A stretch of DNA of 64,000 nucleotides from contig WFRX01000140.1 in the NCBI GenBank assembly GCA_015486285.1, positions 1,621 to 65,620 on the forward strand. Reading direction: 5' to 3'. Under the pieces are notes generated by a model. That model was not told the origin of the DNA. It saw only the letters and a list, made by a program, of their open reading frames with translations, and made no database searches. Source of the stretch: a bacterium (GTDB lineage Bacteria > Desulfobacterota > DSWW01). The position numbers and the translations under genes were made by a program. Positions 1 to 63,465 of this stretch are shown here, piece by piece (position 1 is the first letter of the stretch; each line of letters opens with the position of its first letter).

Positions 1-380
1 ATAGCAGTCGTCGAAGATGACATCCCAGTCGTGGAGCTCCGTGTCCAGATCAAAGCCGAGATCGAGAAAGCGCGGGGTCCTTTCCGCATCCAGGGCGATC
101 CGGAACAATCGGGTCACCAGCTCCCGGTAGAGACCGCGGCCTATCCTGGGTCTCCCGGCAATCGAGTGTATGCGCGACCAGTCCCAGCCCGGCGGCAGGA
201 AGAATGCATACAGCTTGTCCAGGGTTTCTTCATAATCGCAAAGGTCGTTCCGACAGGAGCCCGAGACATCGAGGACCGTTTCGATGAATCGCCTGATGAA
301 GACCTCTTTGGCATCTTCTATTTTTTGGCTCATCCATTTCTCCTTCTCGTCCGACCGATCGTACGGACCGCCGGTCGCGC

Positions 381-2305: not shown

Positions 2306-2591
2306 GACAGAACTCCTGTGGTGGATTTTCGTGGAAGATACGGGGCACACCATGCAGATGATTCACCCTAGCACCGACGTGAAGGCATGACAAGAAGCTT
2401 GTGCCCGCCTGCCGACCCAAGGCGATGCGCCAGGCAGGCCCCCGTGGGGAACAACGCCCCGCGGACGCCGAAGGAGTCTTCTCCCGGAACGGCCCTTGCT
2501 TCTGTCTATCCTATCGGATAATAATGAACGGGTTCGAAAACGGCGATGGTGCCGGTTGGCTGACTCTATCTTGGAGAAGGAGGGACATGCC

Positions 2592-3344
2592 ATGGCTGAA
2601 CCGAGCCTGCAGGACAGGACGTTCCATATCATCATGAAACGGATGGTGGAGACGGGGCAGGCGCCTCACTTCACGGAGATCGCGGCCGAACTGGGCGTGT
2701 CGCCCAAGGAAGGCCGAGATGCCCTTCACAAGCTCTTCTCCCTCCGGGGCGTTCCCGGCTGGCTCTACCCGAAGGGCGATACCGTCGTTTCCTTCGCCCC
2801 CTTCAACAACCTGCCGACCCAATACCGGATTACCATCGACGGGGAGCAGAAATGGTTCGGCCAGTGAGCTTTCGAGTCGCTGGCGGTCTGCTGGCTCTTT
2901 CCCGGTAAGACGGTACAGATCGATACGGTGTGCCTCGATTGCGGCGAGCCCATCCAGGTGAAGGTAAAGGACGGAAAGATCGAGTCCGCGGATCCGGAAG
3001 GGCTCGTGGGCTATGTCGCCCTCCCGGTCGGAAAGTGGATGCTCAACGCCCCCTACGCATGAAGCACCATGAACTTCTTCCGGTCGGAAGAACACGTTCG
3101 CAGGTGGGAAGGCTTCAACGAGAAGAAGATGGGCGGGGTCATCGCCCTGGGCGATCTGATGCGCGTCTTCTCCGGGCGCTACTTCAAGAGACGGCTCGAC
3201 CCGGACTGGGTCTCGCACATGAGCGAGTACATGGCCGAGATGCTCGCCTCCCTCGATACCCTCGAGAACGCGGGGGACTACTGGCGGATGTCGCGCCTGG
3301 AAAAAATTCTGTTTTCCCTGGCCATGAAGCTGGGGCTCGTGTAG
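2592..3344 (+). CDS. MerB-like (organomercurial lyase family) protein with two in-frame UGA codons (2865-2867, 3060-3062) at the positions of catalytic Cys96 and Cys159; putative double selenoprotein
   Basis: One continuous frame (phase 0) joins ORFs 2496..2867, the untracked stretch AFESLAVCWLFPGKTVQIDTVCLDCGEPIQVKV...NAPYA, and 3069..3344. By remembered MerB sequence, YRITIDGEQKWFGQ-U-AFESL aligns with YVFEIDDRRLYAW-C96-ALD (Asp99 becomes Glu), VCLDCGEPIQVKV with HCAATGAPVSLTV, PYA-U-STMNFFRS with FCC159HVHFFAS, and VRRWEGF with AEDWASK. SD GGAGAAGGAGGG precedes the ATG at 2592. Confidence 0.7.
2868..2895 (+). promoter_or_regulatory. SECIS-like hairpin after UGA-1: 11-nt spacer, stem GCUGGC/GCUGGC (6 bp, 2 G-U), apical loop GGUCU
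   Basis: Read directly: 2879-2884 GCTGGC, 2885-2889 GGTCT, 2890-2895 GCTGGC. Spacing and loop match the remembered E. coli fdhF minimal SECIS (11 nt after UGA, loop GGUCU). Confidence 0.55.
3063..3099 (+). promoter_or_regulatory. SECIS-like hairpin after UGA-2: 12-nt spacer, stem UUCUUCC/GGAAGAA (7 bp), loop GGUC, lower stem GAAC/GUUC with CAC bulge
   Basis: 3075-3081 TTCTTCC, 3082-3085 GGTC, 3086-3092 GGAAGAA; 3071-3074 GAAC pairs with 3096-3099 GTTC. Confidence 0.55.
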
Positions 3345-3409
3345 CACCCTGCCGGCGGGGTCGACGGCCGTCCCCGATTCCGCCGGCAGATATATACGAT
3401 ATTTTGTGT

Positions 3410-3427
3410 TCTCCTCCAAAATAATGG
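3410..3427 (+). promoter_or_regulatory. Putative activator site (imperfect palindrome CTCCAAAATAATGGATG) about 100 bp upstream of a sigma-54-type promoter
   Basis: Shares the CTCCAAAAT half-site with the perfect palindrome at 12902-12917, at the same distance from a near-identical promoter. Confidence 0.4.
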
Positions 3428-3524
3428 ATGTATTCTGGCCAGGCATATCTGAAATCTCCTCCCGCCGATTCGAGAAAAAACAGATCTTCCAGTCCCTTAC
3501 CGTCTCCTTGCCTTTGCGCGCCCT

Positions 3525-3540
3525 CTGGTATGAATCTTGA
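3525..3540 (+). promoter_or_regulatory. Sigma-54-type promoter candidate (CTCTGGTATGAATCTTGATAA; GG-N10-TTGA)
   Basis: -24 TGG and -12 TTG correctly spaced, -12 C replaced by A. 19 of 22 positions identical to the promoter at 13011-13032. Lies 45 bp upstream of the ABM gene. Confidence 0.45.
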
Positions 3541-3582
3541 TAATGCCCTGTCCCATGGGTCGGGAATGAAAGGGGCGCTGCG

Positions 3583-3966
3583 ATGATGGTACTGGCACTC
3601 CGCATGCGCGTGCAGCAGGGAAAGCGTGACGATCTGCTCCAAGTGGTGCGGCGCATGCTGGAACCGGACAGGCTGGCAAAGGGCTGCTTGAGCTACCACT
3701 TCTACCAGGACATTGAAGACCGTAATGCCTTCGTTTTCGTGGAGGAATGGGAGTCGCGGACGGATCTCGAGGACTACATCCGCACGGAGAGCTTCAGAAG
3801 GCTCCTGGCCGTGATGGATGTTTTGCGAGAGGCCCCGAAGCTCGATATCTACAAGGTATCCGAGACGGTCGGGATGGATTTCGTCGAGGCCGTGCTCGAA
3901 GATACGGCGGCAGGCAGGGGGACATTGCCGATTGAACCGACGACACAAGGGGGGCGCCGCGCATGA
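3583..3966 (+). CDS. ABM (antibiotic-biosynthesis-monooxygenase / Dabb-fold) domain protein
   Basis: LSYHFYQDIEDRNAFVFVEEWESRTDLEDYIRTESFRRLL resembles ABM/YgiN-like proteins. Its stop overlaps the next start (ATGA at 3963). Confidence 0.5.
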   Translation: MMVLALRMRVQQGKRDDLLQVVRRMLEPDRLAKGCLSYHFYQDIEDRNAFVFVEEWESRTDLEDYIRTESFRRLLAVMDVLREAPKLDIYKVSETVGMDFVEAVLEDTAAGRGTLPIEPTTQGGRRA

Positions 3967-5627
3967 GGATCAGGCTCAGAAGATGGGTGTTATGGCTGCT
4001 TGGGATCATTTTTCCCTGTCTCTTGTTCTCCCCGTTCCAGCGGGAAGCGGGGGCATTCTTCATCGATGACAAGGGCACGCTGCAGGTTTCGGCCAAGGTA
4101 CAGACCCGGGCGAGTTTTCGGCTCCAGGACGCGGACGGCTTTACCTCTCCGGACACGAAGGCGGGCGACCTGGTCCAATGGCGCAACCTGGGCCTCATCG
4201 AGATCAATCACGATCTGAGAGAGCTTACGAAGACGCTGGACATCCTTTGGCCGCTGAAAAAACTGGAGATTGACGCCCGCTACCATCTGGTGGGCCGGTT
4301 CATGTACGATGCCGTCTACGATATCGGCAGCGGCGGCTTCGGCGACGTCAAAGACGCGGATCCCGACAACATCGACAAATTCAAGCAGTCTTACGACCTG
4401 TGGGAATGCTATGCCGATTTTGTCCGAGGTCGCTGGTTTTTCCGCCTGGGCCGACAGAATCTCGCCTGGGGTGAAACCGACATCTTCCGCCTTCTCGACG
4501 GGATCAACCCGCTGGACAACACCTTCGGCGGCCCTTTCGAGGACCTGGACGACCGTCGGATTCCCCTCTGGATGCTGAAGGGTTCCTTCGATGTGGGGGA
4601 CGTAGGACCCTTTTCTTCCGTGGCGCTGGAAGGATTCTGGGTCCCCGGGTTCTGGGACGCCCGGGTAGCCCCTTTCGCGCCCCCGGGCACGCCTTACGCC
4701 GTGCCCTTGCCCGAGCTGTTCGTTCCCGCGCTTCGTATCGATACGCCGGACAAGAAGGGGTCCAACAGCAGGTGGGGGGTGCGCCTCTCAGGGATGGCGG
4801 GGCCCAACCTGAACTGGTCCATAGCCCATTACAAGACCTTCCTGGACCAGCCGGCCCTGCGGGCGGTGGTGGACCAGGGCCAGCTCACAGAAGTGGGGGG
4901 CGAAAAGCTGCTCACAAGCCTGGACGCCCTCACCCTGGAAGGCTCCTTCCCGAGCGTGCAGGTCACGGGCGCGAGCATGAGCTATTTTGACGCGGTGACC
5001 AACACGGTGTTTCGAGGGGAAGTCGCCTGGTTCTGGGACGAACCCGTCTTCATCCCGCAGGAGAATATGTCGCTTTTCTGGGGGCCTACCGTACCCTTGC
5101 CGCCCCCGGTGCTGGATCTGGCCGCCGAGTTGCTCGGGGTGGACATCCGGGATCTGGGCCTGGACGGGCTGCCCCTGAACCCGCAAAGCGGCCGGATCCC
5201 CGAGAAGGACATCCTGCGGTTCATGATCGGGCTGGACAAGCAAATCTGGATCCGGCCCTTGAACAAGGCGAGCATGTTTTTCCTGTCCATGCAGTACTTC
5301 GGCCAGTGGATTTCCGACTACGACGGTCGGATGGCACAGGCCGCCCCGATCTACCCGGATTATGTCGTGTTTCCCAAGGTGAAAGAGTACGAGAACACCA
5401 TCACCGCCATTGTGAACACGTATTACATGCAGGGAAATCTCGTGCCCCAACTGGCCGTGGCCTATGACCCGCGGGGAGCCTGGCTTGTGATGCCCCAGGT
5501 GAATGTCATCCACGGCCCGTGGCGGTTCATGGTTCAGTACAGCGCCATCGCAGGAAACTTCACCAACTTCGGCGTCCTGCGGGACCGAGACCAGATCAGC
5601 TTCATCCTGACGTACCTGCTGAGCTAG
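3963..5627 (+). CDS. DUF1302-family outer-membrane protein
   Basis: 554 aa with a signal-peptide-like N-terminus, an aromatic-rich beta-barrel-like sequence, and a DUF1329 partner immediately downstream. Confidence 0.6.
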   Translation: MRIRLRRWVLWLLGIIFPCLLFSPFQREAGAFFIDDKGTLQVSAKVQTRASFRLQDADGFTSPDTKAGDLVQWRNLGLIEINHDLRELTKTLDILWPLKKLEIDARYHLVGRFMYDAVYDIGSGGFGDVKDADPDNIDKFKQSYDLWECYADFVRGRWFFRLGRQNLAWGETDIFRLLDGINPLDNTFGGPFEDLDDRRIPLWMLKGSFDVGDVGPFSSVALEGFWVPGFWDARVAPFAPPGTPYAVPLPELFVPALRIDTPDKKGSNSRWGVRLSGMAGPNLNWSIAHYKTFLDQPALRAVVDQGQLTEVGGEKLLTSLDALTLEGSFPSVQVTGASMSYFDAVTNTVFRGEVAWFWDEPVFIPQENMSLFWGPTVPLPPPVLDLAAELLGVDIRDLGLDGLPLNPQSGRIPEKDILRFMIGLDKQIWIRPLNKASMFFLSMQYFGQWISDYDGRMAQAAPIYPDYVVFPKVKEYENTITAIVNTYYMQGNLVPQLAVAYDPRGAWLVMPQVNVIHGPWRFMVQYSAIAGNFTNFGVLRDRDQISFILTYLLS

Positions 5628-5682
5628 CCCGGCGGCGTACAAGGGAACGGAAATGACCCTGAAAATCCATCAGGAGGGAATC

Positions 5683-6996
5683 ATGAGGTTCGGAACGTAT
5701 GGGATCCGGTTTCTTGCATGCCTTTGCGCGCTCTTGTGTCTGGCCGCCTCCGCTTCCGCCGACGTGGCGCCGGGCGACACTGTGGACAAGACGAACTGGG
5801 AGAAGGTCCAGGGGATGGTGCCGGAGCCGGTCCTCAACTACGTGAAGAAAGGGGACCTGACCATCCATGTGGTCAATCTGGAATACGACCCCGCGGACTA
5901 CATGAGCATCTACGCCAAAGAATCCTTGGAGCCGAACAGGGGCAAATATGATCTGAACGACGACGGGATCGTCGTGGACGTCCAGAGCAGGAAGCTCCCG
6001 GATTTCATCGGGGGCATTCCCTTTCCGGAGATCGACCTGAACGATCCGAAGGCAGGGGCCAAGATCGTGACCAACCACTTCTACCAGACCTTTTCCCAGG
6101 GGAATGTAAAAATCCGAGACCAATTCCGCTGGATCGGCCGCGGCGGGCTGGAGCGGGTGGTCGAATCCAATTTCTGGCAGTATCCCATGGACGGCTATCC
6201 TCCCCGGAAGGCGGCGAAAAACAAGAACAAGGTGGAGCGGTATTCGATCATTCAGATCTTGGCCCCTTACGACATTGCAGGCACGAACATTCTGCTCTGG
6301 CGGTATCGTGACGCTCGTCCGGACAGCACCTTCGGGTACATCCCGGCCATTCGGAGGGTGCGCCGTATGAGCCCGTCGAACCGCTCCGATGCGTTCATCG
6401 GGTCCGACCTCTGTGTGGATGACGCCTGGACCTTCGACGGCAAGGTGTCCTCCTTCACGTGGAAGCTGGTGGGAAAGAAAGAAGGCCTGATCCCGTACGT
6501 GTTCAAGAAGGCCCAGCCGATTGTCAAGATCAGCGACGAAGCCGTTCAAACCACGAGACAAACCCATCGTTTGCAAATGAACTACGACGTGAAAGACGCG
6601 CAGAATGCACCCTGGTTTCCCTCGGAGAAGAACCCGCTGGCCTGGGTGAAACGGCCGGTGTATGTCGTCGAATTGACGGCCAAGGACCCCTACTACAATT
6701 ACGGGAAGATGTTTCTTTGGCTGGATGCGGGGAATCCCACCGCCGCCGTGTTCAAGACGATCTATGACCGTGCCGGCAAGTACTGGAAAAACGTATGGAT
6801 GGCCTGGACCGCCCTCGCAACGGAAGACAAGAGCGTGAAGTTGCTGGTTCCCGCGTACATGCTTGCTGCGGATGATCGCACGGACCATGCCACGATGCTC
6901 CAGGGTTTGTGCGAAGACTTCATCTATACCTACTTTGACGACTCCCAGACTGAAAGGGACTATTCCCTGGCCGGATTCCAGCGTCTGTCGAAATAG
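5683..6996 (+). CDS. DUF1329-family (LolA-like) outer-membrane/periplasmic protein
   Basis: Signal peptide MRFGTYGIRFLACLCALLCLAASASA; family resemblance and the usual pairing with DUF1302. Start at the internal ATG 5683 with a CAGGAGGG SD (the ORF track starts at 5653). Confidence 0.6.
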   Translation: MRFGTYGIRFLACLCALLCLAASASADVAPGDTVDKTNWEKVQGMVPEPVLNYVKKGDLTIHVVNLEYDPADYMSIYAKESLEPNRGKYDLNDDGIVVDVQSRKLPDFIGGIPFPEIDLNDPKAGAKIVTNHFYQTFSQGNVKIRDQFRWIGRGGLERVVESNFWQYPMDGYPPRKAAKNKNKVERYSIIQILAPYDIAGTNILLWRYRDARPDSTFGYIPAIRRVRRMSPSNRSDAFIGSDLCVDDAWTFDGKVSSFTWKLVGKKEGLIPYVFKKAQPIVKISDEAVQTTRQTHRLQMNYDVKDAQNAPWFPSEKNPLAWVKRPVYVVELTAKDPYYNYGKMFLWLDAGNPTAAVFKTIYDRAGKYWKNVWMAWTALATEDKSVKLLVPAYMLAADDRTDHATMLQGLCEDFIYTYFDDSQTERDYSLAGFQRLSK

Positions 6997-7023
6997 ATGG
7001 GAACCCGCGGAGGGGGCCAAGAC

Positions 7024-7368
7024 ATGGCTACCGTACGGATCGCGCCTGGAAACTGTAATTTTGAAACGCGGGTTTCCGTCGCGAAGATCGATAAACGGAG
7101 CTACAAGGTCGAGATCGAGAGCGCGTGCGAGCAGGTGAGCAGGCTGGGCGAAGGGATCCGCGAGTTGACGCTTCGCGATGTGCTTTGCCCCCCTTCGCTC
7201 TCCCCTTTGCTGGAGAAGGCGGGTGAGTGCAGGTTGCACGCCTCTTGTCCGGTTCCGGTGGGGATCCTCAAGGCCATGGAAGTGGAGGCCGGCCTCGCTT
7301 TGCCCATGGATGTCGTTATCCGGTTCGAGCGGTCCGCCGGGAAAGACGATCCCCCAAAAAAGAGCTGA
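7024..7368 (+). CDS. Small (114 aa) Cys-containing hypothetical protein immediately upstream of RACo
   Basis: ORF 6997..7368 has protein-like composition (MATVRIAPGNCNFETRVSVAKIDKRSYKVEIESACEQ...) and a GGAGGGGG SD 8 nt before the ATG at 7024. Confidence 0.45.
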   Translation: MATVRIAPGNCNFETRVSVAKIDKRSYKVEIESACEQVSRLGEGIRELTLRDVLCPPSLSPLLEKAGECRLHASCPVPVGILKAMEVEAGLALPMDVVIRFERSAGKDDPPKKS

Positions 7369-7399: not shown

Positions 7400-9358
7400 G
7401 TGGCGCACGACAAAGGAGAGGCAACCGTCATCTTTCAGCCTTCCGGCCGTAGAGGCCGGGTGGAGAAAGGAAAGAACCTCAAGGAGATCTCCGTCGGCCT
7501 CGGCGTGGACATCGAAGGGCTTTGCGGCGAGCAGGGGGTCTGCGGCAAGTGCAAGGTTCGCGTGGAGCAGGGATTCTTCGAGAAGTACGGGATCCAATCC
7601 GGCCCGGAGGCCCTCTCTCCCCTCACGGACACCGAGAGAGAGGCCCTGACGGCGCGCGAGTGCGAGCAGGGTTTCCGGCTGGCCTGTGTGGCCCAGGTCC
7701 TGGGCGACGTGGTGGTGTTCGTGCCGGAGGAGAGCCGCCTGGGCAAACAGGTGGTCCGCAAGGCGGGCCGGAAGCTGGACATCGCCCTCGACCCTGCTCT
7801 TCGGAAGTACACGGTGGAACTGCCCAAGGCGACCCTGGAGGACACGCTGGGCGACTGGGAGAGGCTGCAGGCGGCACTGCGGAAGACGCACGGCCTCGAT
7901 GGCGTAACGATCGACTACACTGCCCTCACCAGCCTGCAGGGCGCCATCCGGGAGGGCGACTGGCGGGCCACGGCCACGGTCTGGAGGGACCGGGAAGTCA
8001 TCCGGGTGACTCCCGGGGGGGAGGAGAAGGCCTACGGCGTGGCTGTCGATATCGGTACGACCACGGTCGCCGCCTATCTGTGCGATCTGTCGACCGGGGA
8101 GTTGACGGTTACCTCTTCCGCGATGAACCCCCAGGTGTCGTACGGCGAAGACGTGATGTCCCGCATCAGTTACACCCTCACCAACCCGGAGGGACTCGCG
8201 CAACTCAACCGGGCGATCATCCAGGGCCTGAACAGCCTGCTCGAGGAGCTGGCGGGGGAGGGCGGCATCCGCGCGGAAGACATCGAAGACCTGGTTGTCG
8301 TGGGCAACACCTGCATGCATCACCTCCTGCTGGGAATCGATCCCCGCTATATCGGCAAGGCGCCGTTTCCGCCGGCGCTGCACCACTCCATCGACTTGAA
8401 GGCGCGCGATCTCGGCTTGAAGATATGCCCCGGCGCCTATCTGCACGTCCTTCCGATCGAAGCGGGATTCGTCGGCGCGGACAATGTGGGCGTGCTCATC
8501 GCAGAGACGCCTTACGAGGAGGAGCAGGTCCGTCTCATCATCGACATCGGCACGAACGGAGAATTGATCCTGGGCAACCGGGAAAAGCTGGTCTCCTCCT
8601 CCTGTGCCACGGGGCCCGCCTTCGAGGGCGCCGAGATCAAGTACGGGATGCGGGCGGCTCCGGGCGCCATCGAGAAGATCGTAATCGACCGGGAGACCAA
8701 GGAGGTCCGCTTCCGGGTCATCGACAACGAAGCGTGGAACGATGAGGCGGACCATATCGGCGCCAAGGGGATCTGCGGCTCGGGCATCATCGATGCGGTC
8801 CCTCAGCTCTTCCTGGCCGGGATCATCGACCGCACGGGACGGTTCTCCAAGGACCTGGACACGCCCCGGTATCGCGTTACCGAGGAGGGCCCCGCCTTCG
8901 TCATCGCCTGGGCCCGGGAGACATCCATCGGCCAGGACATCGTGATCACCCAGGACGACATCCGGGCGATCCAGCTGGCCAAGGGCGCCATGTACGCAGG
9001 TGCGGTCATCATGATGCGGGCCTTCGGGGTCGAAAGGGTGGACGAAGTCATTCTGGCCGGCGCCTTCGGCAGCTACATCGACAGGGAATCGGCGGCCCTG
9101 CTGGGCCTGTTTCCGGACTGCCCCCTGGAGAAAATCCGTTCCGTGGGCAATGCCGCCGGCGACGGCGCGCGCATGGCGCTCCTGAACGTCGGGAAAAGGG
9201 CCGAGGCGGATGAATGGGCCAGACAGGTGGAATACCTCGAGCTGACCCTGGAAGCGGATTTCGAAAAACGCTTTACCCAGGCCATGTGGATTCCCCACAT
9301 GAAGGACAAGTTCCCCTCCTTGGAGCACCTGCTGCCCGGCAAGGGGAGAGGCAAGTAG
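7400..9358 (+). CDS. RACo-type reductive activator of corrinoid proteins (N-terminal 2Fe-2S ferredoxin + ASKHA/DUF4445 ATPase domain)
   Basis: CGEQGVCGKCKV...C ferredoxin motif, then ASKHA-like VDIGTTTVAAY..., IDIGTNGEL..., GSGIIDA motifs. GTG start at 7400 preceded by an AGGAGG SD; the ORF-track N-terminal extension is ignored. Confidence 0.8.
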   Translation: MAHDKGEATVIFQPSGRRGRVEKGKNLKEISVGLGVDIEGLCGEQGVCGKCKVRVEQGFFEKYGIQSGPEALSPLTDTEREALTARECEQGFRLACVAQVLGDVVVFVPEESRLGKQVVRKAGRKLDIALDPALRKYTVELPKATLEDTLGDWERLQAALRKTHGLDGVTIDYTALTSLQGAIREGDWRATATVWRDREVIRVTPGGEEKAYGVAVDIGTTTVAAYLCDLSTGELTVTSSAMNPQVSYGEDVMSRISYTLTNPEGLAQLNRAIIQGLNSLLEELAGEGGIRAEDIEDLVVVGNTCMHHLLLGIDPRYIGKAPFPPALHHSIDLKARDLGLKICPGAYLHVLPIEAGFVGADNVGVLIAETPYEEEQVRLIIDIGTNGELILGNREKLVSSSCATGPAFEGAEIKYGMRAAPGAIEKIVIDRETKEVRFRVIDNEAWNDEADHIGAKGICGSGIIDAVPQLFLAGIIDRTGRFSKDLDTPRYRVTEEGPAFVIAWARETSIGQDIVITQDDIRAIQLAKGAMYAGAVIMMRAFGVERVDEVILAGAFGSYIDRESAALLGLFPDCPLEKIRSVGNAAGDGARMALLNVGKRAEADEWARQVEYLELTLEADFEKRFTQAMWIPHMKDKFPSLEHLLPGKGRGK

Positions 9359-9423
9359 CAGCCGGGTATGCCCAACGGCTGGAAAGTAGACCGACATGAT
9401 CAGGATGAACTGCTTTCTTCGCC

Positions 9424-9460
9424 GACTTCCCAAAAAGTCCCATTTGCGGCGTTCGGCTTC
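9424..9460 (+). repeat. Copy 1 of a short intergenic repeat family (CCCAAAAAGTCCCATTTGCGGCGTTCGGCTTCATCC)
   Basis: Related copies at 18430-18463 and 24263-24296. Confidence 0.5.
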
Positions 9461-9737
9461 ATCCGTCGTCATTCAACGTACGGGAGGTACGCTTCACCGT
9501 TACATGGATCCCCTTATCCTGCGGAATTGTCGCCTGCGTTGCACCCGGAACTTTTTGAACAGCCTCCAAGAGCCACCTTGTGAACAGGCTCTCAGGCAGG
9601 TCCGGGGGGCCGCGCCCCGTGCTGATGACAACGGCACATGGATATGCCAGACTGCAAGGAGGTCGGGTTTGTAGGTTTGTATCGGTCGTCCGGCACGAAG
9701 GCGGCCTGCGACACCGGAAGACGAAAGCGCCACGGCC

Positions 9738-11333
9738 ATGGATGAGAACGCCGGTCACCTGCTCGAGGAACGACTGCGTTTCGAGCAATTGCTTTCCAAT
9801 CTTTCCGCGAAATTCGTCAACCTCCCTGCACATCGGGTGGACGCAGAGATCTCGAGCGGACTCCAGGAAATCGCGGTTTTTCTCAACGTAGACCGGGCTA
9901 TCTTGTGGGAGCGATCTCCTGAGGATGGACGCTTCCGTCCCATTCATTGGTGGGCCATACCGGGGGTTGATACGTTTCTTCCCGGTACAACGGAAGAAAA
10001 CTTCCCGTGGATTCTCGAACGTGTTTATCGAGGTGAGGCCACGATCATTACCCGGGTGGAAGACTTCCCGGCAGAGGCGGAAAAAGAGAGGCGTTGGGTG
10101 GAGGGGACAGGTGTGAAGTCGGGCATCGTGGTGCCGCTCATGGTAGAGGGATCCGTGGTCTCCCTGCTGGCGCTGCACGTCCATCGGAGCGGGCGGCACT
10201 GGACCCCTGAAATCGTACAGCGACTGCGCATGTTCGGGGAGGTGCTTCTCAACGCCCGGGAACGCAAGCGGGGAGAAGAAAGGCTCCGGCAGGCCTTCTC
10301 CGAGATCGAGCGGCTGAAACATCAGCTCGAGGTGGAAAACCGTTACCTCCGCGAAGAAATCGACCTCACCCACGAGCACAAGGAAATCGTCGGCAAGAGC
10401 CGGGCCATCCGGAGGGTCTTGCGCTCCGTGGAAAGGGTGGCCGGTACGGAATCCACGGTTCTCATCCTCGGTGAGACCGGCGCCGGGAAGGAAATGATCG
10501 CCTTTGCGATTCACAACATGAGTCCCAGAAGAGGCAGGCCTCTCGTAAAGGTGAATTGCGGCTCTTTGCCCACTACCTTGGTGGAGAGCGAACTGTTCGG
10601 CAGAGAAAAGGGGGCGTTCACGGGCGCCGTTTCGAGACAAACGGGGCGGTTCGAGGTCGCGGACGGCTCGTCGATTTTTCTCGACGAGATCGGGGAAATG
10701 CCCCTCGAGGCACAGACCAAGCTCCTGCGGGTGATCGAGGATGGTGAATTCGAGCGTTTGGGCAGCACGAAGACCATCAAAGTGGATGTCCGCGTCATCG
10801 CCTCCACGAACCGGGACCTGCTCCAGGCGGTTCGGAAAGGCGTCTTTCGGGAGGACCTCTATTATCGTTTGAATGTCTTCCCCATTGTCGTCCCCCCTCT
10901 TCGGGAACGCAGGGAAGACATCCCCCGGCTGGTGTGGCACTTCGTGAGAAGTTACGAGAAGAAAATGGGGAAGTCTATCGAGAAGATCCCGGAGAAAGAT
11001 ATGCAGGCCCTGCAAAGGCATGACTGGCCGGGCAACGTCCGGGAGCTGAAGAACGTGGTGGAACGGGCGATGATCCTGAACCGGGGGCCCATCTTCCGGT
11101 TGGAAATGGATGAGGCCAGAGCCCACACGGGGGGCCTGGGGAGAACCCTCCGGGAGATCGAGAAGCGGCACATCATGGACGTGTTGGTGGAGACCGGTTG
11201 GCGGGTGAGGGGCAAAGGCGGCGCGGCGGAGATTCTGGGCCTCAAGCCTACGACCCTGGAAGCCAGGATGCAGAAGCTCGGCATCCGGAGAAAGCGCGAA
11301 TCCTTGTCTTCCGCTGTGGAGACGCCCCGGTGA
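9738..11333 (+). CDS. Sigma-54-dependent transcriptional activator (GAF sensor domain + AAA+ sigma-54 interaction domain + Fis-type HTH)
   Basis: GAFTGA motif ([10 protein letters not shown]), Walker A GETGAGKE, the ESELFG motif, and a C-terminal HTH ([21 protein letters not shown]). Confidence 0.9.
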
Positions 11334-11429
11334 GGCCCCGGAAGCCAGGGGACAAGGCCCGCCAAAGCACTTGAGAGGGAGTCGAGTCCGGTCCGGAAGA
11401 CAGAAGGGCACTCAATAGGGGGAAAAGAG

Positions 11430-12779
11430 ATGGGCACACAGCCGACGAAAACCTTGCAAGCGGATGTGGTGATTGCAGGGTCCGGGCCGGGCGGGGCCAC
11501 CGTGGCCCGGGAGCTTTCCCGAAAGGGCAAGCGGGTGATCGTGTGCGAGGCGGGAAAGTACAGCAAGTGGCTCGGACACACCCTTTCCACCTTTTTCATG
11601 CTGGATCGGAAGGGGTTGAGCTTTTCCGAACAGGGGCAGTGGATCGTCTCGGGCCGGACGGCCGGCGGAGGCACGGTCGTCTATGGCGGTATGGCCTGGA
11701 AGCCTCCTGCCTGGTTCAAGGAGAAGTACGGCATCGACCTCTCCGCGGAGACCGATGAGTTCTACCAGGAGGTTTCAGCCGGTCCCCTGCCGGATTCACA
11801 CATCGGTCCCGCGTCCCGGAGGATCATGGAGGCGGCCCGCAAGACGGGCCTTGACTGGAAGCCGGCCGACCGCTTGATCCGTGCGGACAAGTGTAAGCCC
11901 GACTGTGATGCGTGTATGTCCGGATGTACGCGGGGCGCCAAGTGGACGGCCCGCGAGTTCCTGGACGAGGCCGTCGGCAACGGCGCGACCCTCCTGCTGC
12001 AAACAGAGGTGGAGCGGGTTCTGACAGAGTCCGGCGAGGCGATCGGTGTGCGGGCAATGGGGCCCGAGGGGCCGGTGGAGATCCTGGCGGATACGGTGGT
12101 CGTCTCGGCGGGCGGGTTCGGAACGCCCCGCATTCTGCAGAGGTCCGGGCTCTACGAGGCCGGCCGGGGATTTGCCGTCGATTTCGGGCGCTACGTGGGC
12201 GGTCTCTGTCCCGACCACACCCCGCGGACCGAGGTTCCCGCAACGACGGGTGTCGAGCTGTCCAAGGAAGGCATCATCCTGCTTGCAGGCACGCTCAAGG
12301 GGATCATGTACGGAGGGATGCTCGCCATTACCGGGCCCCGGGCCTGGGGCCGGTTGCCCGACGCTTTCCGGGCCGGGAAGGCCCTGGGAATCCTGATGAT
12401 GGTCCGAGACCGGGTCGAGGGGAGGATCAACCCGGAGGGCACCTTTTCCAAGCCGATCGACGAGGATTGCCGGGCCAAGCTCAACCAGGGGACCCTGATC
12501 GCCCAGGAGGTGCTCGAGGAGGCCGGCGTGAGGCGCAAGCAACAGACGGCCATGACCGTTTTCGCCGCCCACCAGGTGGCTTCCGTTCGAATCGGGGAGT
12601 TGCTGGACCAGAACTGCCAGACACCCATCAAGCGATGCTACTGCATGGATGCCAGCGTGATCCCCGAGGACTGGGGCCAGCCGCCCGTGGTCACCATCGT
12701 CGCCCTGGCCAAGAGGCTCGCCAAACATCTTGCCGTGGCCGTTGAGACGGAAGTCGCCGTACAAGAACCTGCTTCCTGA
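11430..12779 (+). CDS. GMC-family FAD-dependent oxidoreductase (short form)
   Basis: N-terminal Rossmann ADVVIAGSGPGGATVAREL and a GMC-like C-terminal region. Confidence 0.65.
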   Translation: MGTQPTKTLQADVVIAGSGPGGATVARELSRKGKRVIVCEAGKYSKWLGHTLSTFFMLDRKGLSFSEQGQWIVSGRTAGGGTVVYGGMAWKPPAWFKEKYGIDLSAETDEFYQEVSAGPLPDSHIGPASRRIMEAARKTGLDWKPADRLIRADKCKPDCDACMSGCTRGAKWTAREFLDEAVGNGATLLLQTEVERVLTESGEAIGVRAMGPEGPVEILADTVVVSAGGFGTPRILQRSGLYEAGRGFAVDFGRYVGGLCPDHTPRTEVPATTGVELSKEGIILLAGTLKGIMYGGMLAITGPRAWGRLPDAFRAGKALGILMMVRDRVEGRINPEGTFSKPIDEDCRAKLNQGTLIAQEVLEEAGVRRKQQTAMTVFAAHQVASVRIGELLDQNCQTPIKRCYCMDASVIPEDWGQPPVVTIVALAKRLAKHLAVAVETEVAVQEPAS

Positions 12780-12901
12780 GGAATCCCCGGCGGGTCATTT
12801 CCGTGAGCCTGCAGAGGGGGTTTGCGTGTCATGTTGGCTTCTTTTTCAAGCCATAGCGGGGACGGGTGTGTGGCGCGGGAACTCCAAGATGTTGGGACGG
12901 G

Positions 12902-12917
12902 CTCCAAAATTTTGGAG
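12902..12917 (+). promoter_or_regulatory. Perfect 16-bp palindrome CTCCAAAATTTTGGAG; putative sigma-54 activator site (UAS)
   Basis: Read directly. Lies about 100 bp upstream of the TGGCAC promoter. Confidence 0.5.
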
Positions 12918-13010
12918 GCCGTGCTTCCTTCCTGATCATCCCTTGCCGCGGGGGGCTGAAAAATACCGTATTGTTTTCGGCAGGTTAGGTCTTCATCCGC
13001 CTTGTCGCTT

Positions 13011-13032
13011 CTCTGGCACGACTCTTGAGAAG
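13011..13032 (+). promoter_or_regulatory. Sigma-54 promoter candidate (CTCTGGCACGACTCTTGAGAAGG; TGGCACG-N4-TTGA)
   Basis: -24 TGGCACG is perfect; -12 is TTGA instead of TTGC. Sits 90-110 bp upstream of the first methyltransferase gene; a sigma-54 activator gene is adjacent. Confidence 0.55.
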
Positions 13033-13120
13033 GAAGAATGGCCGGCAGCCGACCTTGTCCCGTTTCGGATGGAGCGGGAAGGTCGGGAATGAAACGGACT
13101 TTCATGGGGAGGGCTTACGG

Positions 13121-14203
13121 ATGGTCAGTTCAAGAGGGGGCATGAGTGAACTGGAACGGCTGGAGGCGCTGTTGAACCGGGAGCGGCCGGACCGGGTACC
13201 TATCTGGCCTCTATCCGCAGGATTCAGCATGCTGAACGGAGGGTATACGATCAATGACGTCTACACCGACGTCAGGATCTGCACGGATGCGCAGATTTGG
13301 GCCAACGAACAGTACGGCTGGGCCCCTGTCGTGCTCATTCCGGGCGCCCTTTCGGCATGGCCCGCCCTGGAATTCGGCGGGGACGTCAAGTTCCCCACCG
13401 GAGACTTTTCCCAGGCCCCGACGGTTGTGCGGCATCCGGTTCAGAGCGACGAGGAGATCCTCAACCTGAAGATTCCGGATCCCCTGGAAAATGCGGGCAC
13501 CATCCCCATGCAGCTTGCCGCGGTAGCCTATGCGCTGGAGCGCCAGCCAAGGGGTCTGCTGGTGGGCCTTCTTGTAGGCGGGCCCATGGAGATCGGCAGG
13601 GCGCTCGTCAGCATCGAGATGTTGGGCCGGATGATGTACAAAAAGCCGGACATGGTGCACAAGCTTTTCCGGTTTGCCACCGACTTCTCGATCGCCGTGG
13701 CCAAGCTGTGGACCGAGAAGTTCGACCCGGCGAGGATCTGCCCCTTCGTCGGAGGGCCCACCCACTCGAACCAGGTCATCTCGCCGAAGCATTTCAAGGA
13801 ATTTTGCCTCCCCTACGTCAAGGAAACGCATGCGGCCCTGCGGGAATTGGGCTACAAGCATTTCATGTTTCATCCCTGCGGGGAGCAGAACGAGAACCTC
13901 CCCTACTGGGCCGAGGCGGAGATGGGCGACCCCGGGATCATCAGCGTGGGGCACGAGATCGACCTGAGCAAGGTGGCCGAGTACTTCCCGGATCACATCG
14001 CCTTCGGGAACCTGGAGCCGGCCATCGTACAGACCCACAAGCCTCCCGAGGTCTACGAGGCGGTCCGGGATCTGGTGGCCAGGCACAAGGACATTCCCGG
14101 CGGCTACATCTTTTCGGTGGGCTGCGAGCTGCCGCCGAAGGCCTCGCCGGGCAGTGTCTGGGCCATGACCAAGGCGGTGGAAGATGCCGGCTGGTATACG
14201 TGA
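13121..14203 (+). CDS. Uroporphyrinogen-decarboxylase (URO-D/MtaA) family methyltransferase (corrinoid-dependent MT, copy 1)
   Basis: MtaA/CmuA-like TIM-barrel sequence (RVPIWP..., HPCGEQNENLPYW). Start at ATG 13121 with a GGGGAGGG SD; ATG 13142 is the alternative. Confidence 0.75.
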   Translation: MVSSRGGMSELERLEALLNRERPDRVPIWPLSAGFSMLNGGYTINDVYTDVRICTDAQIWANEQYGWAPVVLIPGALSAWPALEFGGDVKFPTGDFSQAPTVVRHPVQSDEEILNLKIPDPLENAGTIPMQLAAVAYALERQPRGLLVGLLVGGPMEIGRALVSIEMLGRMMYKKPDMVHKLFRFATDFSIAVAKLWTEKFDPARICPFVGGPTHSNQVISPKHFKEFCLPYVKETHAALRELGYKHFMFHPCGEQNENLPYWAEAEMGDPGIISVGHEIDLSKVAEYFPDHIAFGNLEPAIVQTHKPPEVYEAVRDLVARHKDIPGGYIFSVGCELPPKASPGSVWAMTKAVEDAGWYT

Positions 14204-14274
14204 CGAGCGAGCAGTTTCTGAGGAATAGACGTAAAGAACCCAACAAGCACCCGACAAGAAGAAGGAGACCGTTC

Positions 14275-14964
14275 ATGGCGAGCGAGGAGCGAACCAGGGA
14301 GATCCTGGAGGCACTGAAGGACTCGGTCAAGGATTTCGAGGAGGAAGAGGCGGTCAAGTGGGCCAAGATCGCGCTGGAAGAAGGAGTGGATCCCTTTCAG
14401 GCGACCATGGAGGGGCTGGCGGAAGGCATGATCATCGCGGGCGATCTTTACAACCAGAAGGAGTACTTCGTGCCGGAGCTGCTCATGTGCTCCGATGCCC
14501 TGTACGCGGGGCTGGAGGTGCTCAAGCCGGCCATCGAGGCCTCGGACCGGCAATCGGAGGTAAAGGGTTCGATTGTCGTGGGGGTGGTGGAAGGGGATGT
14601 GCATGACATCGGCAAGAATCTGGTGAAGATCATGTTCGAGGTGGCGGGCTGGACGGTGCACGATCTCGGCAAGGACGTGCCCCTGGAGAAGTTCGTGGAA
14701 GAGCAGATCCGGACCGACTGCGATGTGGTGGGGCTCTCCGCGCTGATGACCACCAGCATGCTGGGTATGCCGGAGGTGATCCGGAAGCTCAGGGAGAAGA
14801 ACCCGAAGGTGCGGATCCTGATCGGGGGCGCCCCGATCAACCCGGAGGTGGCCGAGAAGTACGGGGCCGACGGCTACGCCAAGACGGCCGGGACGGCGGT
14901 GGATGAGGCGATCCGGCTGCTGAAGATGTTGCGGGACGAGGAACAGGGCAAGCAGGCGGTCTGA
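14275..14964 (+). CDS. Corrinoid (B12-binding) protein, MtaC/MtbC-like
   Basis: B12-binding DxHxxG motif (GDVHDIGKN), a helical cap domain and a Rossmann-like B12 domain; GAAGGAGA SD. Confidence 0.85.
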   Translation: MASEERTREILEALKDSVKDFEEEEAVKWAKIALEEGVDPFQATMEGLAEGMIIAGDLYNQKEYFVPELLMCSDALYAGLEVLKPAIEASDRQSEVKGSIVVGVVEGDVHDIGKNLVKIMFEVAGWTVHDLGKDVPLEKFVEEQIRTDCDVVGLSALMTTSMLGMPEVIRKLREKNPKVRILIGGAPINPEVAEKYGADGYAKTAGTAVDEAIRLLKMLRDEEQGKQAV

Positions 14965-14994
14965 CAGGGCACGAGCAGGAGGGAGGTGTTTTCG

Positions 14995-16020
14995 ATGAAT
15001 TCCAGGGAACGGGCCTTGAAGGTCTTCAAGCGCGAGCCGGTCGACCGCATACCGGTCTTCAGCGGCTACGGGAACATTACGCTGCACGGGCTTGAGCAAC
15101 ATGGCTGGAATTTCTGCGAGATCCACACGGACGCGGAGAAGATGGCGCGGGTGGCCGCCACGAGCTACGAACTCTTCGGGTTCGAGTGTGCGGTGGTGCC
15201 TTTCGACATGGGGGTGGAGGCCGAGGTCCTCGGCAGCAAGGTCAACTATTACCCGCACCGTACGGATGTGGTCTACCCGACGATCGAGCAGCCGGCCGCG
15301 GAAACGGTGGACGATCTCCGGGTGGAGATGCCCGCCGACCTGGCCCATGCGGGACGGGTTCCCGTGGTCCGGGAGGCATTGGGCAAATTGAAGGAGCGGT
15401 TGGGTGAGGATGTGGTGATCGGCGCCTGGGTGCTGGGTCCTTACACGCAGACCGGCCAACTGGTGGACCTTTCCAATCTCTCCCGGGCGGCCTACAAGAA
15501 GCAGGGGCTGATGAACGAGATCCTGGAGAAGGTCTCTACCTTCCTGATCGAAGTGATCCGGCTCTACCGGGAGGCCGGGGCGGACTACATCACGATCCGC
15601 GAGATGGGGGCGGGGCCGGACATCCTGAGCCCGGCCATCTTCCGGAAACTGGTCAAGCCCCACTTGGAGCGTATCTTCTCGGAGATCGACTCACCGAAGG
15701 TGCTGCACATGTGCGGCGACACGAACATGATCATCGAACTTCTGGGGGACTGCGGGGCGGACGCGGTGAGTGTGGAGAACAAGAACGACGTGGCCGCGTC
15801 CCGGGCGAAGCTGGGTCCGGATGCGCTGATCTTCGGCGACATCGACGCTTACAACGTGCTGGTCAACGGCACGCCGGAGCAGGTGGCGGAAGCGGTCAAG
15901 GCCGCGATCGACAAGAGCGTCAACGCCCTCTGGCCCAGTTGCGACATCTGGCCCACGGCCCCCCCGGAAAACATGCGGGCCCTTATGGAAGCCGCGAGGC
16001 AATATGGAAAACGCGGCTGA
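14995..16020 (+). CDS. URO-D/MtaA-family methyltransferase (copy 2)
   Basis: RIPVFSGYGNITLHGLEQHG..., HMCGDTNMIIELL. ATG 14995 is 9 nt after an AGGAGGGAGG SD. Confidence 0.75.
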   Translation: MNSRERALKVFKREPVDRIPVFSGYGNITLHGLEQHGWNFCEIHTDAEKMARVAATSYELFGFECAVVPFDMGVEAEVLGSKVNYYPHRTDVVYPTIEQPAAETVDDLRVEMPADLAHAGRVPVVREALGKLKERLGEDVVIGAWVLGPYTQTGQLVDLSNLSRAAYKKQGLMNEILEKVSTFLIEVIRLYREAGADYITIREMGAGPDILSPAIFRKLVKPHLERIFSEIDSPKVLHMCGDTNMIIELLGDCGADAVSVENKNDVAASRAKLGPDALIFGDIDAYNVLVNGTPEQVAEAVKAAIDKSVNALWPSCDIWPTAPPENMRALMEAARQYGKRG

Positions 16021-16093
16021 GCTTCTGTAAGGAGGGTCCGAGGATCTGGATGGGTTTGGTGTGGATCACTTGACCATTGCGAAGGAAAACCAA

Positions 16094-17035
16094 ATGCTTC
16101 GATACCCGAAAGTGCAGCAAGTGGCCGAGATCGGGGGTCTCCGGGTCGGCGGCCAGCCGGGCGAGAATCCTCCCCTCCTGGTGGGAAACATGTTCCAGAA
16201 GGGGGATGCCCTGTTGAAGAGCCGGAAACAGGGCGAGTTTGACAGGGCCCGGGCGGAAGAACGTATCCGGGAGCTGGAAAGCGTTTCCCGTGAGACGGGC
16301 ATACCCGGTATGGTGGCGCTGGTGGCGAACACGGAAGAAGAAATCAAGGGCTACATCGACTTTGTCACCGACGTGACGGACATGCCCTTTGCCGTGGACA
16401 TCTGGCAGCAGGATGTCCGGCTCGCCGCGGCGCGCTATGTGGCCGAGATGGGCATGCAGGACAGGGTCCTGTACAACAGCATCACGCCCTGGGACAAAGA
16501 CATCGCGTCCCAGGTGTCGGAACTCAAGGAACTGGGCATCCGGCATGTGGTGATCCAGGCCTTTGACACGAACGACAAGACCTCCTCGGGCAGACTCACC
16601 TCCCTGGAGGCCCTGCTGCCTTCGGCTCAGAAGGGCGGATTCGCGAGCATCCTGGTGGATACGGCCGCCATGAACCTGCCCGCCATGGGGCTGTCGCTGA
16701 AGGCCAATCATCTCATCAAGGAGCGGCTCGGCCTGCCCGTGGGGTTCGCCCCGTCCAACGGAAGCTACATGTGGCGGAAGTCCGCGGAAGGGGATGCGAA
16801 AAAGAGGTTTCCCGCCGTGGATGCGGCGGCGCATGCCGTCTGCGCGCTCCTGAGCGATTTCCTCTTCTACGGGCCCATGTCCGGGACGTCCCGGGTGTTC
16901 GCCGCCGTCGGGGCGGCAAGCGCCATGACGGCCGCGTTGGCCTACGAGGAGACGGGCGCCCTGCCGGCGGGCGCGCATCCGCTCGGCGAGATGTTTCCGG
17001 ACGTCCTCGAACAGTTCCGTCAGGACTCTGCCTGA
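16094..17035 (+). CDS. MtrH-family (pterin-binding) methyltransferase: methyl-corrinoid:tetrahydrofolate/pterin methyltransferase
   Basis: VAEIGGLRVGGQPGENPPLLVGNMF is a typical MtrH/MT-II N-terminus. ATG 16094 has a GAAGGA SD; the track's GTG at 16061 is the alternative. Confidence 0.75.
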   Translation: MLRYPKVQQVAEIGGLRVGGQPGENPPLLVGNMFQKGDALLKSRKQGEFDRARAEERIRELESVSRETGIPGMVALVANTEEEIKGYIDFVTDVTDMPFAVDIWQQDVRLAAARYVAEMGMQDRVLYNSITPWDKDIASQVSELKELGIRHVVIQAFDTNDKTSSGRLTSLEALLPSAQKGGFASILVDTAAMNLPAMGLSLKANHLIKERLGLPVGFAPSNGSYMWRKSAEGDAKKRFPAVDAAAHAVCALLSDFLFYGPMSGTSRVFAAVGAASAMTAALAYEETGALPAGAHPLGEMFPDVLEQFRQDSA

Positions 17036-52241: not shown

Positions 52242-52319
52242 TGGCGTCCCCAACCGGATTCGAACCGGTGTTGCCGCCGTGAAAGGGCGGTGTCCTTGGC
52301 CAGGCTAGACGATGGGGAC
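52242..52319 (-). tRNA. tRNA-Glu (anticodon UUC)
   Basis: Minus-strand sequence GTCCCCATCGTCTAGCCTGGCC...CCGCC-CTTTCAC-GGCGG...GGTTCGAATCCGGTTGGGGACGCCA; 7-bp acceptor stem, loop CUUUCAC. Confidence 0.85.
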
Positions 52320-52383
52320 GTCTGGTGACTGCGCTATACGAAAAAGATGGAGTGCTCGACCCCTGTTTTCCCTGAGGTCCGGC

Positions 52384-52459
52384 TGGTGGGCCGTGCTGGA
52401 CTCGAACCAGCGGCTCTCTGCTTAAAAGGCAGATACTCTACCGACTGAGTTAACGGCCC
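52384..52459 (-). tRNA. tRNA-Lys (anticodon UUU)
   Basis: GGGCCGTTAACTCAGTCGGTAGAG...TCTGC-CTTTTAA-GCAGA...GGTTCGAGTCCAGCACGGCCCACCA. Confidence 0.85.
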
Positions 52460-58303: not shown

Positions 58304-58393
58304 GGAGAGATGGCCGAGAGGTCGAAGGCGGCTGACTCGAAATCAGCTGTACCGCTTGCGGTACCGGGGGTTCGAATCCCTCTCTCTCCGCCA
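58304..58393 (+). tRNA. tRNA-Ser (anticodon CGA)
   Basis: GGAGAGATGGCCGAG...GCTGA-CTCGAAA-TCAGC, long variable arm, ...GGTTCGAATCCCTCTCTCTCCGCCA. Confidence 0.85.
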
Positions 58394-63066: not shown

Positions 63067-63161
63067 GGAGAGATGTCCGAGCTGGCCGAAGGAGCACGAT
63101 TGGAAATCGTGTAGGCGGCCTCAAAGCCGCCTCGAGGGTTCGAATCCCTCTCTCTCCGCCA
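63067..63161 (+). tRNA. tRNA-Ser (anticodon GGA)
   Basis: GGAGAGATGTCCGAG...CACGA-TTGGAAA-TCGTG, long variable arm, ...GGTTCGAATCCCTCTCTCTCCGCCA. Confidence 0.85.
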
Positions 63162-63182: not shown

Positions 63183-63465
63183 AGCTTGGCCGTGCTAGAC
63201 GGGGAATTAGCGGTGCCCTTTACCCGAAATCCGCTTATGCGGGGTCGAATCCCCTTTTGAGGCGCCTGTCTGGTAGGGGCCTGAGCGCAAAGGGCAAAGT
63301 TGAGAACCGGGACCCACGCAACAGATGGCTGCCGAACCCCGCCAGGTCCGGAAGGAAGCAACGGTAGGCAGTTTCGTCTGTGTGCCGTGGAATCTCCTGG
63401 TTTGATTTGTCCTTCTCGTTTCCGCCCTGTTGGACGGTGTCGAAATCGGGTGCATGGCCAAGCCC
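63183..63465 (+). ncRNA. ffs: Signal recognition particle RNA, long (Bacillus-type) form with 5' Alu domain
   Basis: Domain-IV core CCAGGTCCGGAAGGAAGCAACGG at 63342-63364. The 5' region GCCGTGCTAGACGGGGAATTAGCGGTGCCC...GGGGTCGAATCCCC resembles the Bacillus scRNA Alu domain as I remember it. Terminal helix 63184-63191 GCTTGGCC pairs with 63456-63463 GGCCAAGC, followed by TTTTTTT. The gene lies immediately upstream of dnaX. Confidence 0.75.

Follow-up and report, generated by a model that had tools for sequence, protein, structure and literature searches.

We describe a gene at positions 2592-3344 (forward strand) of a 64,000-nucleotide (nt) stretch of DNA from a bacterium of the Desulfobacterota (GenBank assembly GCA_015486285.1, contig WFRX01000140.1; the whole stretch is called the window here), whose product belongs to the superfamily of the organomercurial lyase MerB. 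Two in-frame UGA codons in this gene very probably encode selenocysteine (Sec), each with its own selenocysteine insertion sequence (SECIS) element. The only breaks in the frame are the TGA triplets at codons 92 and 157 (Table 1). A sequence-only reading of this DNA had claimed that the open reading frames (ORFs) 2496..2867 and 3069..3344 and the stretch between them share one phase and are split by nothing other than these two TGAs; both ORFs are found, in the same phase, and the translation agrees. The interpretation offered there, a MerB homologue with two UGA-encoded Sec residues and an fdhF-like hairpin for each, is supported by the comparisons below.

The homologues begin at the Met equivalent to the ATG at 2592, and a purine-rich stretch resembling a Shine-Dalgarno sequence lies directly upstream. 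The G+C content at codon positions 1, 2, and 3 of the full frame (0.59, 0.40, and 0.83) resembles that of other window genes, with a third-position value (GC3) of 0.83 throughout the frame in a window of 62% G+C overall. On the opposite strand, an ORF of 381 codons (2511-3656, minus strand) spans the entire gene; it has a GC3 of 0.60 and a first-position value of 0.71, and is a typical shadow ORF of high-GC DNA, not a gene. The G+C-rich inverted repeat that follows the gene was not called by a strict terminator scan, and we tentatively note it as a possible transcription terminator.

Table 1. Positions of the gene, its predicted functional elements, and the corrinoid-associated genes downstream, in window coordinates
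Feature	Position	Strand	Details
Shine-Dalgarno-like purine-rich stretch	2573..2584	+	GGAGAAGGAGGG; read from sequence; its AAGGAGG ends 8 nt upstream of ATG 2592
Predicted MerB-superfamily selenoprotein coding sequence	2592..3344	+	250 codons; Sec92, Sec157; stop TAG 3342-3344
UGA-1, predicted Sec92 codon	2865..2867	+	aligned to MerB Cys96
Glu95 codon	2874..2876	+	aligned to Asp99, the proton donor of MerB
Putative SECIS-1 hairpin	2879..2895	+	6-bp stem GCUGGC/GCUGGC (2879-2884/2890-2895); loop GGUCU (2885-2889); 11 nt past UGA-1
Cys114-x-x-Cys117 motif	2931..2942	+	TGC at 2931-2933 and 2940-2942
UGA-2, predicted Sec157 codon	3060..3062	+	aligned to MerB Cys159
Putative SECIS-2 hairpin	3075..3092	+	7-bp stem UUCUUCC/GGAAGAA (3075-3081/3086-3092); loop GGUC (3082-3085); 12 nt past UGA-2
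G+C-rich inverted repeat	3349..3389	+	15-nt arms, 87% complementary; 5 nt past the stop; A/T-rich stretch after it
RACo-type reductive activase	7430-9358	+	
Sigma-54 activator with GAF domain	9738-11333	+	
GMC/FAD oxidoreductase	11430-12779	+	
URO-D/MtaA-type methyltransferases (two)	13025-14203, 14986-16020	+	
B12-binding corrinoid protein	about 14200-14964	+	
MtrH-like methyltransferase	16061-17035	+	

Conservation of the UGA codons and of the hairpins that follow them

We scanned one genome per species and found a relative of the gene in 492 genomes; the locus comparisons below use the best 80 of these (58-75% identity), which are mostly metagenome-assembled genomes (MAGs) of Thermodesulfobacteriota from the Syntrophobacteria, Desulfobacterales, Syntrophales, Desulfarculales, and Desulfomonilaceae. 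TGA stands at both sites in all 80 loci, site 2 being offset by one codon in one of them (L026). Each of the 77 gap-free alignments contains exactly two in-frame stops, both of them TGA, never TAA or TAG, and no frameshift, and the terminal stops of the same 77 loci vary (TAG in 32, TAA in 27, TGA in 18). Mean identity to the window is 0.67 in the N-terminal segment, 0.67 between the UGAs, and 0.60 past UGA-2, so that the segments beyond the stops are as conserved as the N terminus; the sequence-only reading had argued that a frameshifted pseudogene would not keep phase and downstream motifs across two stops.

A protein search returned 293 relatives, and we tallied the residues at the two sites in the best 120 clusters. 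The homologues with Cys at the UGA positions that the sequence-only reading had proposed to look for are present: 66 clusters have Cys at site 1 and end exactly one residue before site 2, and three (P0028, P0040, and P0053) are full-length with Cys at both sites, making Cys the site-1 residue in 69 of the 120. A further 49 clusters appear as "full-length" proteins with Trp at both sites, and the remaining two are one Ser/truncated and one Trp/Pro. Inspection of the DNA confirms that behind the 155-residue entries stand Cys/TGA genes with ~78 further conserved codons in frame [one example, from a Candidatus Sulfotelmatobacter MAG, carries the NCBI annotation of a truncated "organomercurial lyase"], and that Cys at site 1 is encoded by TGC in both the Cys/Sec and the Cys/Cys forms. 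The Trp/Trp proteins come from short metagenome contigs and are artefacts of gene callers that chose genetic code 4, in which TGA is translated as Trp. The Ser/truncated cluster (P0051, a Ser/Sec form) would, if real, be a member that has lost one metal ligand. The family as a whole is mostly found in anaerobic Thermodesulfobacteriota, with the Cys/Sec and Cys/Cys versions in other lineages.

In an exhaustive profile search, which gave 1345 matches at E <= 0.001, most of the top matches are fragments that end at profile position 90 or 154-155 or start at 159, the edges set by the two UGAs. Public gene calls likewise render the window gene as two unannotated 91-residue ORFs (2592-2867 and 3069-3344) with no Pfam match, leaving the 64-codon middle segment uncalled in this organism and in its close relatives (loci L087-L089 were also inspected). 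The gene is thus invisible in current annotation, where it takes the form of nameless ORFs, a truncated 155-residue "organomercurial lyase", or Trp/Trp artefacts, so that merB and selenoproteome surveys overlook or misinterpret the family.

Each UGA is followed by a short hairpin. The sequence-only reading had placed these 11 and 12 nt past the UGAs, with GGUCU and GGUC loops; we recover them at the same coordinates, and the RNAalifold consensus of 81 sequences predicts both, conserved across the 80 species. The minimal hairpins fold with -7.9 kcal/mol (z = -2.1) and -8.1 kcal/mol (z = -2.5), compared with -5.7 kcal/mol for the Escherichia coli fdhF mini-hairpin in the same folding tool (we verified that the comparison string lies in fdhF in 5419 of 5426 E. 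coli genomes). As in the fdhF SECIS element, the hairpins lie within the coding sequence directly 3' of the UGA and carry GGUC in the apical loop, and the distance of this GGUC from the U of UGA (+21..24 at site 1 and +23..26 at site 2) is within 1 nt of that in fdhF (+22..25), in keeping with the fdhF-like spacing and loop first read from the sequence. Unlike fdhF, the window gene has two independent elements, 195 nt apart. The upper stem of fdhF has a bulged U; those of the window gene are fully paired helices of 6-7 bp with no bulge.

The strongest evidence that these hairpins act as SECIS elements is the freezing of synonymous sites. Across 78 genomes, codons 96-100 in hairpin 1 are held at TCG (0.97), CTG (0.90), GCG (0.79), GTC (0.91), and TGC (1.00), and codons 163-166 in hairpin 2 are TTC, CGG, TCG, and GAA, a single codon each in 78/78 genomes; codon 162 is always TTC where Phe is encoded (56% of genomes). 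Invariant residues elsewhere in the protein (Ser67, Pro70, and Gly128) use four codons each, the dominant one at ~0.37 or less, and the freezing is confined to the two hairpins, which on this comparative evidence are under RNA-level selection. In addition, hairpin 2 shows covariation at its basal pair (U-A in 36, C-G in 29, and U-G in 10), coupling the first position of a Phe/Leu codon to the third position of a Glu codon. The comparisons together show two predicted Sec codons in one gene, each with its own SECIS-type hairpin.

Hairpin 2 also occurs in Cys/Sec forms of other phyla. Where Cys has taken the place of Sec, the corresponding hairpin has often been lost, as at site 1 of the Cys/Sec form L081 and at site 2 of the Cys/Cys form L084, where it is destroyed. 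Relics are seen in two further loci: the Cys/Sec form L083 (6271-6320) keeps GCUGGC-AGUUU-GCUGGC after its site-1 TGC, and in the Cys/Cys form L086 CUCUUCC-GGUC-GGGAGA persists behind the site-2 TGT, the codon aligned with window codon 157. These relic and lost hairpins suggest recent switches from Sec to Cys (or from Cys to Sec) within the family. The Sec/Sec, Cys/Sec, and Cys/Cys forms, some with relic hairpins, offer a ready series for studies of Sec/Cys exchange. Cys100 (2889-2891) lies in the 3' arm of SECIS-1 and is encoded by TGC in 100% of the genomes with Cys there (87%); since residue 100 varies among Thr, Ser, and Cys in proteins of the Cys/Sec and Cys/Cys types, constraint on the RNA and not on the protein may be what has kept it in the Sec/Sec branch.

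Active site and fold

Homology searches of the window product were run with U written as C. The Pfam MerB family (PF03243) matches residues 73-184 with E = 6.3e-23 and 81.6 bits against a cut-off of 27, and HMMER searches of the Protein Data Bank (PDB) retrieve MerB2 (5C17, E = 4e-9) and MerB (1S6L and 3F2G, E ~1e-5, up to 2e-5), which answers the homology check that the sequence-only reading had suggested for the U-containing translation. That reading had also laid the joined translation colinearly on MerB, and the HMMER alignments to MerB structures give the same blocks: U92-A-F-E95 on C96-A-L-D99, VCLDCGEP on HCAATGAP (with Cys114 on MerB Cys117), and VRRWEGF on AEDWASK. The replacement of Asp99 by Glu, noted there as well, holds in that Glu95 aligns with Asp99 and is conserved in 100% of 78 aligned genomes. 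The placement of UGA-2 on a thiolate ligand of MerB stands, with one small correction: the second Cys of the Cys159-Cys160 pair had been implied, and HMMER, using the chain of a C160S mutant, aligns Sec157 with the first, Cys159.

The protein comprises an N-terminal winged-helix-like domain (~1-55), the MerB catalytic domain (the Pfam match at 73-184), and a C-terminal helical extension (~185-250). We made an AlphaFold2 model for a natural Cys/Cys homologue (P0028, 54% identical) in place of the window product, and it scored a predicted local distance difference test (pLDDT) of 93.8 and a predicted template modelling score (pTM) of 0.89. Foldseek gives 11 matches to this model with E <= 0.001, every one a MerB chain (E of 1e-10 to 1e-7, template modelling scores of 0.49-0.67), and beyond these we find only winged-helix matches to the N-terminal domain. 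Alignment and modelled fold together show that the predicted Sec92 and Sec157, with Glu95, occupy the positions of the MerB catalytic triad.

Compared with MerB and MerB2 (EC 4.99.1.2; PDB 3F0P, 1S6L, and 5C17), the window protein shares the PF03243 domain, the fold, the colinear catalytic positions, and Cys114 in the place of Cys117, a residue that is buried in MerB. It differs in its ~20% identity, in having predicted selenolates for both thiolate ligands and Glu as the proton donor, in an extra invariant Cys that completes a CxxC motif, in a 65-residue C-terminal helical extension, and in the lack of a merR/T/P/A context. The motif Cys114-Leu-Asp-Cys117 is (nearly) invariant in the Sec/Sec, Cys/Sec, and Cys/Cys forms, and its second Cys has no MerB counterpart; since MerB has been proposed to have arisen through duplication of a treble-clef zinc finger (PMC4999995), the CxxC may be a remnant zinc knuckle, or it may form a second metal site. 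The survey of Christakis et al. 2021 (PMC8261052) used Cys96, Asp99, Cys117, and Cys159 as its MerB signature and did not consider Sec; the window protein has Sec, Glu, Cys, and Sec there, residues that depart from the signature and are chemically analogous to it.

The NCBIfam models score the window product below their cut-offs in every case. The best match is SaoL (Selenocysteine-Assisted Organometallic lyase; NF040728, E = 1.7e-12, 47.5 bits against a cut-off of 140), and the MerB models NF009710 and NF033555 give 42.5 bits (cut-off 193) and 36.5 bits (cut-off 200). These sub-threshold scores point to a distinct family within the MerB superfamily, for which NCBIfam release 20 has no model.

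Predicted function and competing explanations

In MerB, RHg+ is bound by a pair of thiolates, and Asp99 supplies the proton to the carbanion that leaves. At neutral pH selenolates are deprotonated, and their affinity for Hg far exceeds that of thiolates. For the window gene we propose that SelB with Sec-tRNA(Sec) would bind the GGUC-loop hairpin after each UGA and insert Sec, that the selenolates of Sec92 and Sec157 would clamp the soft metal centre of an organometallic compound, methylmercury for example, and that Glu95 would protonate the carbon and so cleave its bond to the metal, following MerB. The bis-selenolate site might instead do no more than capture Hg(II) or RHg+, binding them very tightly. 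Our confidence is high, and only a little below that in the selenoprotein gene itself, that the locus holds a single functional double-Sec gene of the MerB superfamily with fdhF-type SECIS elements and a bis-selenolate site, a gene that stands alone outside any mer or SAO operon. Cleavage of the mercury-carbon bond by its product, argued from analogy with MerB, has in our estimate somewhat less than an even chance. If the assignment is right, a bis-selenolate site of MerB type would be a natural experiment in metal-carbon bond chemistry.

Several observations weigh against parts of this account. With regard to decoding, the 64-kb window yields none of selA, selB, selC, and selD, no further selenoprotein gene, and no tRNA-Sec, and neither a Sec-machinery gene nor tRNA-Sec is found in the flanks of the 80 related loci. 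Because these genes were not found in the window, Sec decoding in this organism is something that we infer; the Desulfobacterota are among the most selenoprotein-rich bacteria (BSepDB). With regard to the hairpins, classical covariation in the RNAalifold consensus is limited to the one pair across both elements because the stems are nearly invariant, hairpin 1 falls outside the minimum-energy structure when longer windows of the single sequence are folded, and Rfam gives no match over 2800-3200 at permissive E-values, a search that is uninformative for elements so small. With regard to catalysis, the aligned sequences put Glu in the place of Asp99; the scores fall far short of the NCBIfam cut-offs for both MerB and SaoL; the neighbouring genes include no mer operon, no MerA or HgcA, and no metal chaperone, and neither the HgcA cap-helix motif nor a GMTCxxC metal-binding motif occurs in the window or in the 80 flanks; and, on general chemical grounds, the bis-selenolate-Hg(II) product would be very hard to release, which speaks for slow turnover, a different metal, or a role in capture.

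Since Hg-Se bonds are stronger than Hg-S bonds and product release may be limiting, capture or sequestration, or a substrate other than mercury, is a serious alternative. The protein would then still be a double-Sec selenoprotein of MerB fold, and it would not be a mercury lyase: it might act on another organometal(loid) (such as tin, lead, arsenic, or a cobalt-methyl species), serve as a stoichiometric trap or as a chaperone for Hg or other soft metals, or function in redox chemistry through a selenenyl-selenide. We regard this as possible, if tentative. The lack of mer, hgcAB, or metal-transport neighbours and of any neighbourhood conserved in the 80 loci agrees with it, as do the exchange of the catalytic Asp for Glu, the scores below the MerB equivalog cut-offs, and the invariant CxxC and C-terminal extension that MerB does not have. 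For SaoL, too, substrates other than mercury have been argued to be plausible on account of the Sec at its metal site (Haft and Gwadz 2022, bioRxiv 10.1101/2022.07.06.499078). However, both ligand positions are kept together with an acidic residue one helical turn away, a chemically complete MerB triad; the P0028 model matches the MerB fold alone; and no neighbouring gene points to an alternative substrate.

That the gene is a plain member of the SaoL family is improbable. SaoL, a MerB-like protein whose only Sec, part of a C-U motif, takes the place of MerB Cys159, retains Cys99 and Asp102 and is encoded in the nine-gene SAO locus (Haft and Gwadz 2022). Besides being the best NCBIfam match, SaoL resembles the window protein in its MerB-superfamily fold, its occurrence in strict anaerobes, its UGA-encoded Sec at the Cys159 position, its database entries routinely truncated at the UGA, and its location outside classical mer resistance operons. 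The differences nevertheless cover score, motif, and gene neighbourhood alike: the score is far below the cut-off (47.5 of 140 bits); the C-U motif of SaoL is A-U-S in the window and mostly A-U or S-U in relatives; where SaoL has Cys99 and Asp102, the Thermodesulfobacteriota branch of the window family has a second Sec and Glu; and the window gene is solitary with variable neighbours, none of the SAO genes (ABC transporter SaoX/B/P, SaoC, SaoE, and others) lying near it and no neighbourhood being conserved in its relatives. These sequence comparisons indicate a second MerB-like selenoprotein family, separate from SaoL, with a Thermodesulfobacteriota branch that has Sec at both ligand positions.

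The sequence-only reading had asked whether a Sec-MerB family is already catalogued: SaoL is, and the double-Sec active site is absent from the catalogues consulted. Of the 119 families or subfamilies in a 2026 selenoproteome review, most have one Sec; the review equates the "alkylmercury lyase MerB-like" selenoprotein with SaoL. SaoL is the sole MerB-type selenoprotein in the SaoL preprint and in the 2022 and 2026 selenoproteome reviews, earlier mention of the window family elsewhere, for example in BSepDB or in Haft and Tolstoy 2025 (mSystems), being possible. Two of the papers that the reviews cite, PMC2398784 and PMC5029168, make no mention of such an "alkylmercury lyase MerB-like" protein in their main texts.

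A decayed MerB pseudogene, or an error of sequencing or assembly, would leave only short fragments to be made, such as the 91-residue N-terminal ORF, and would fit the public calls of two unannotated ORFs and the Sec machinery not being seen in the window; yet this highly improbable reading is excluded by conservation, namely TGA at both positions in 80/80 species genomes without a TAA, TAG, or frameshift, an uncalled middle segment on average 67% identical, matching the N terminus, Cys homologues that fill both sites, and hairpins under RNA-level selection. Reassignment of TGA to Trp or Gly, to which the 49 Trp/Trp clusters might seem to point, can be dismissed: those Trp residues are TGA read with table 4 on short contigs, TGA-free relatives have Cys and neither Trp nor Gly, and TGA is not reassigned in this organism, as TGA is the commonest ordinary stop (ending 24 of 38 long window genes) and no other internal TGA occurs in the coding frames of the 64-kb window. 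A GC3-based scan of the window for in-frame TGA returned the two sites in the MerB-like gene and three further sites, which we take to be ordinary gene ends followed by in-frame coding sequence.

With the double-Sec MerB-type reading preferred, a wider role may be considered. The family is widespread in sulfate-reducing and syntrophic Thermodesulfobacteriota, guilds to which methylmercury production also belongs. It is thus frequent in the anaerobes that dominate mercury methylation and is untied to mer operons, which makes it a testable candidate for the poorly understood anaerobic side of methylmercury turnover; the tight binding of Hg by selenolates leads us to expect efficient activation or capture of organomercurials, but with a product-release problem. 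We consider it unlikely that these proteins form an uncatalogued class of organometal lyases with bis-selenolate sites, one that would degrade or sequester methylmercury anaerobically and independently of mer operons, or would cleave some physiological organometallic other than mercury; in that case the two selenolates would allow chemistry that is out of reach of a thiolate MerB.

Neighbouring genes in the window

We find no conserved neighbourhood across the 80 loci, either by comparing the window neighbours with the loci or by clustering the neighbouring ORFs de novo; the commonest neighbour is a generic acyl-CoA dehydrogenase, in 10/80 loci, and no family occurs in more. In the window, the genes upstream, on the opposite strand, encode exonuclease III and a flavin oxidoreductase of the Old Yellow Enzyme type. 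Downstream lie an ABM-domain protein, a pair of DUF1302 (554 residues) and DUF1329/LolA-like (447 residues) proteins at 3963-6996 (forward strand), and DUF6951 at 6997-7368. These are followed by a sigma-54-regulated, corrinoid-dependent methyltransferase cluster (7430-17035, forward strand; Table 1), 4 kb downstream of the MerB-like gene. Its closeness to a homologue of organometal lyases is suggestive, but the 80 related loci do not conserve the arrangement.

Farther along, the window contains four tRNAs, Glu-UUC, Lys-UUU, Ser-CGA, and Ser-GGA, at 52242-52459 (minus strand), 58304-58393 (plus strand), and 63067-63161 (plus strand), the 95-nt tRNA at 63067 being tRNA-Ser(GGA) and not tRNA-Sec. 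A large bacterial signal recognition particle RNA is found at 63190-63457 (plus strand, 176 bits).

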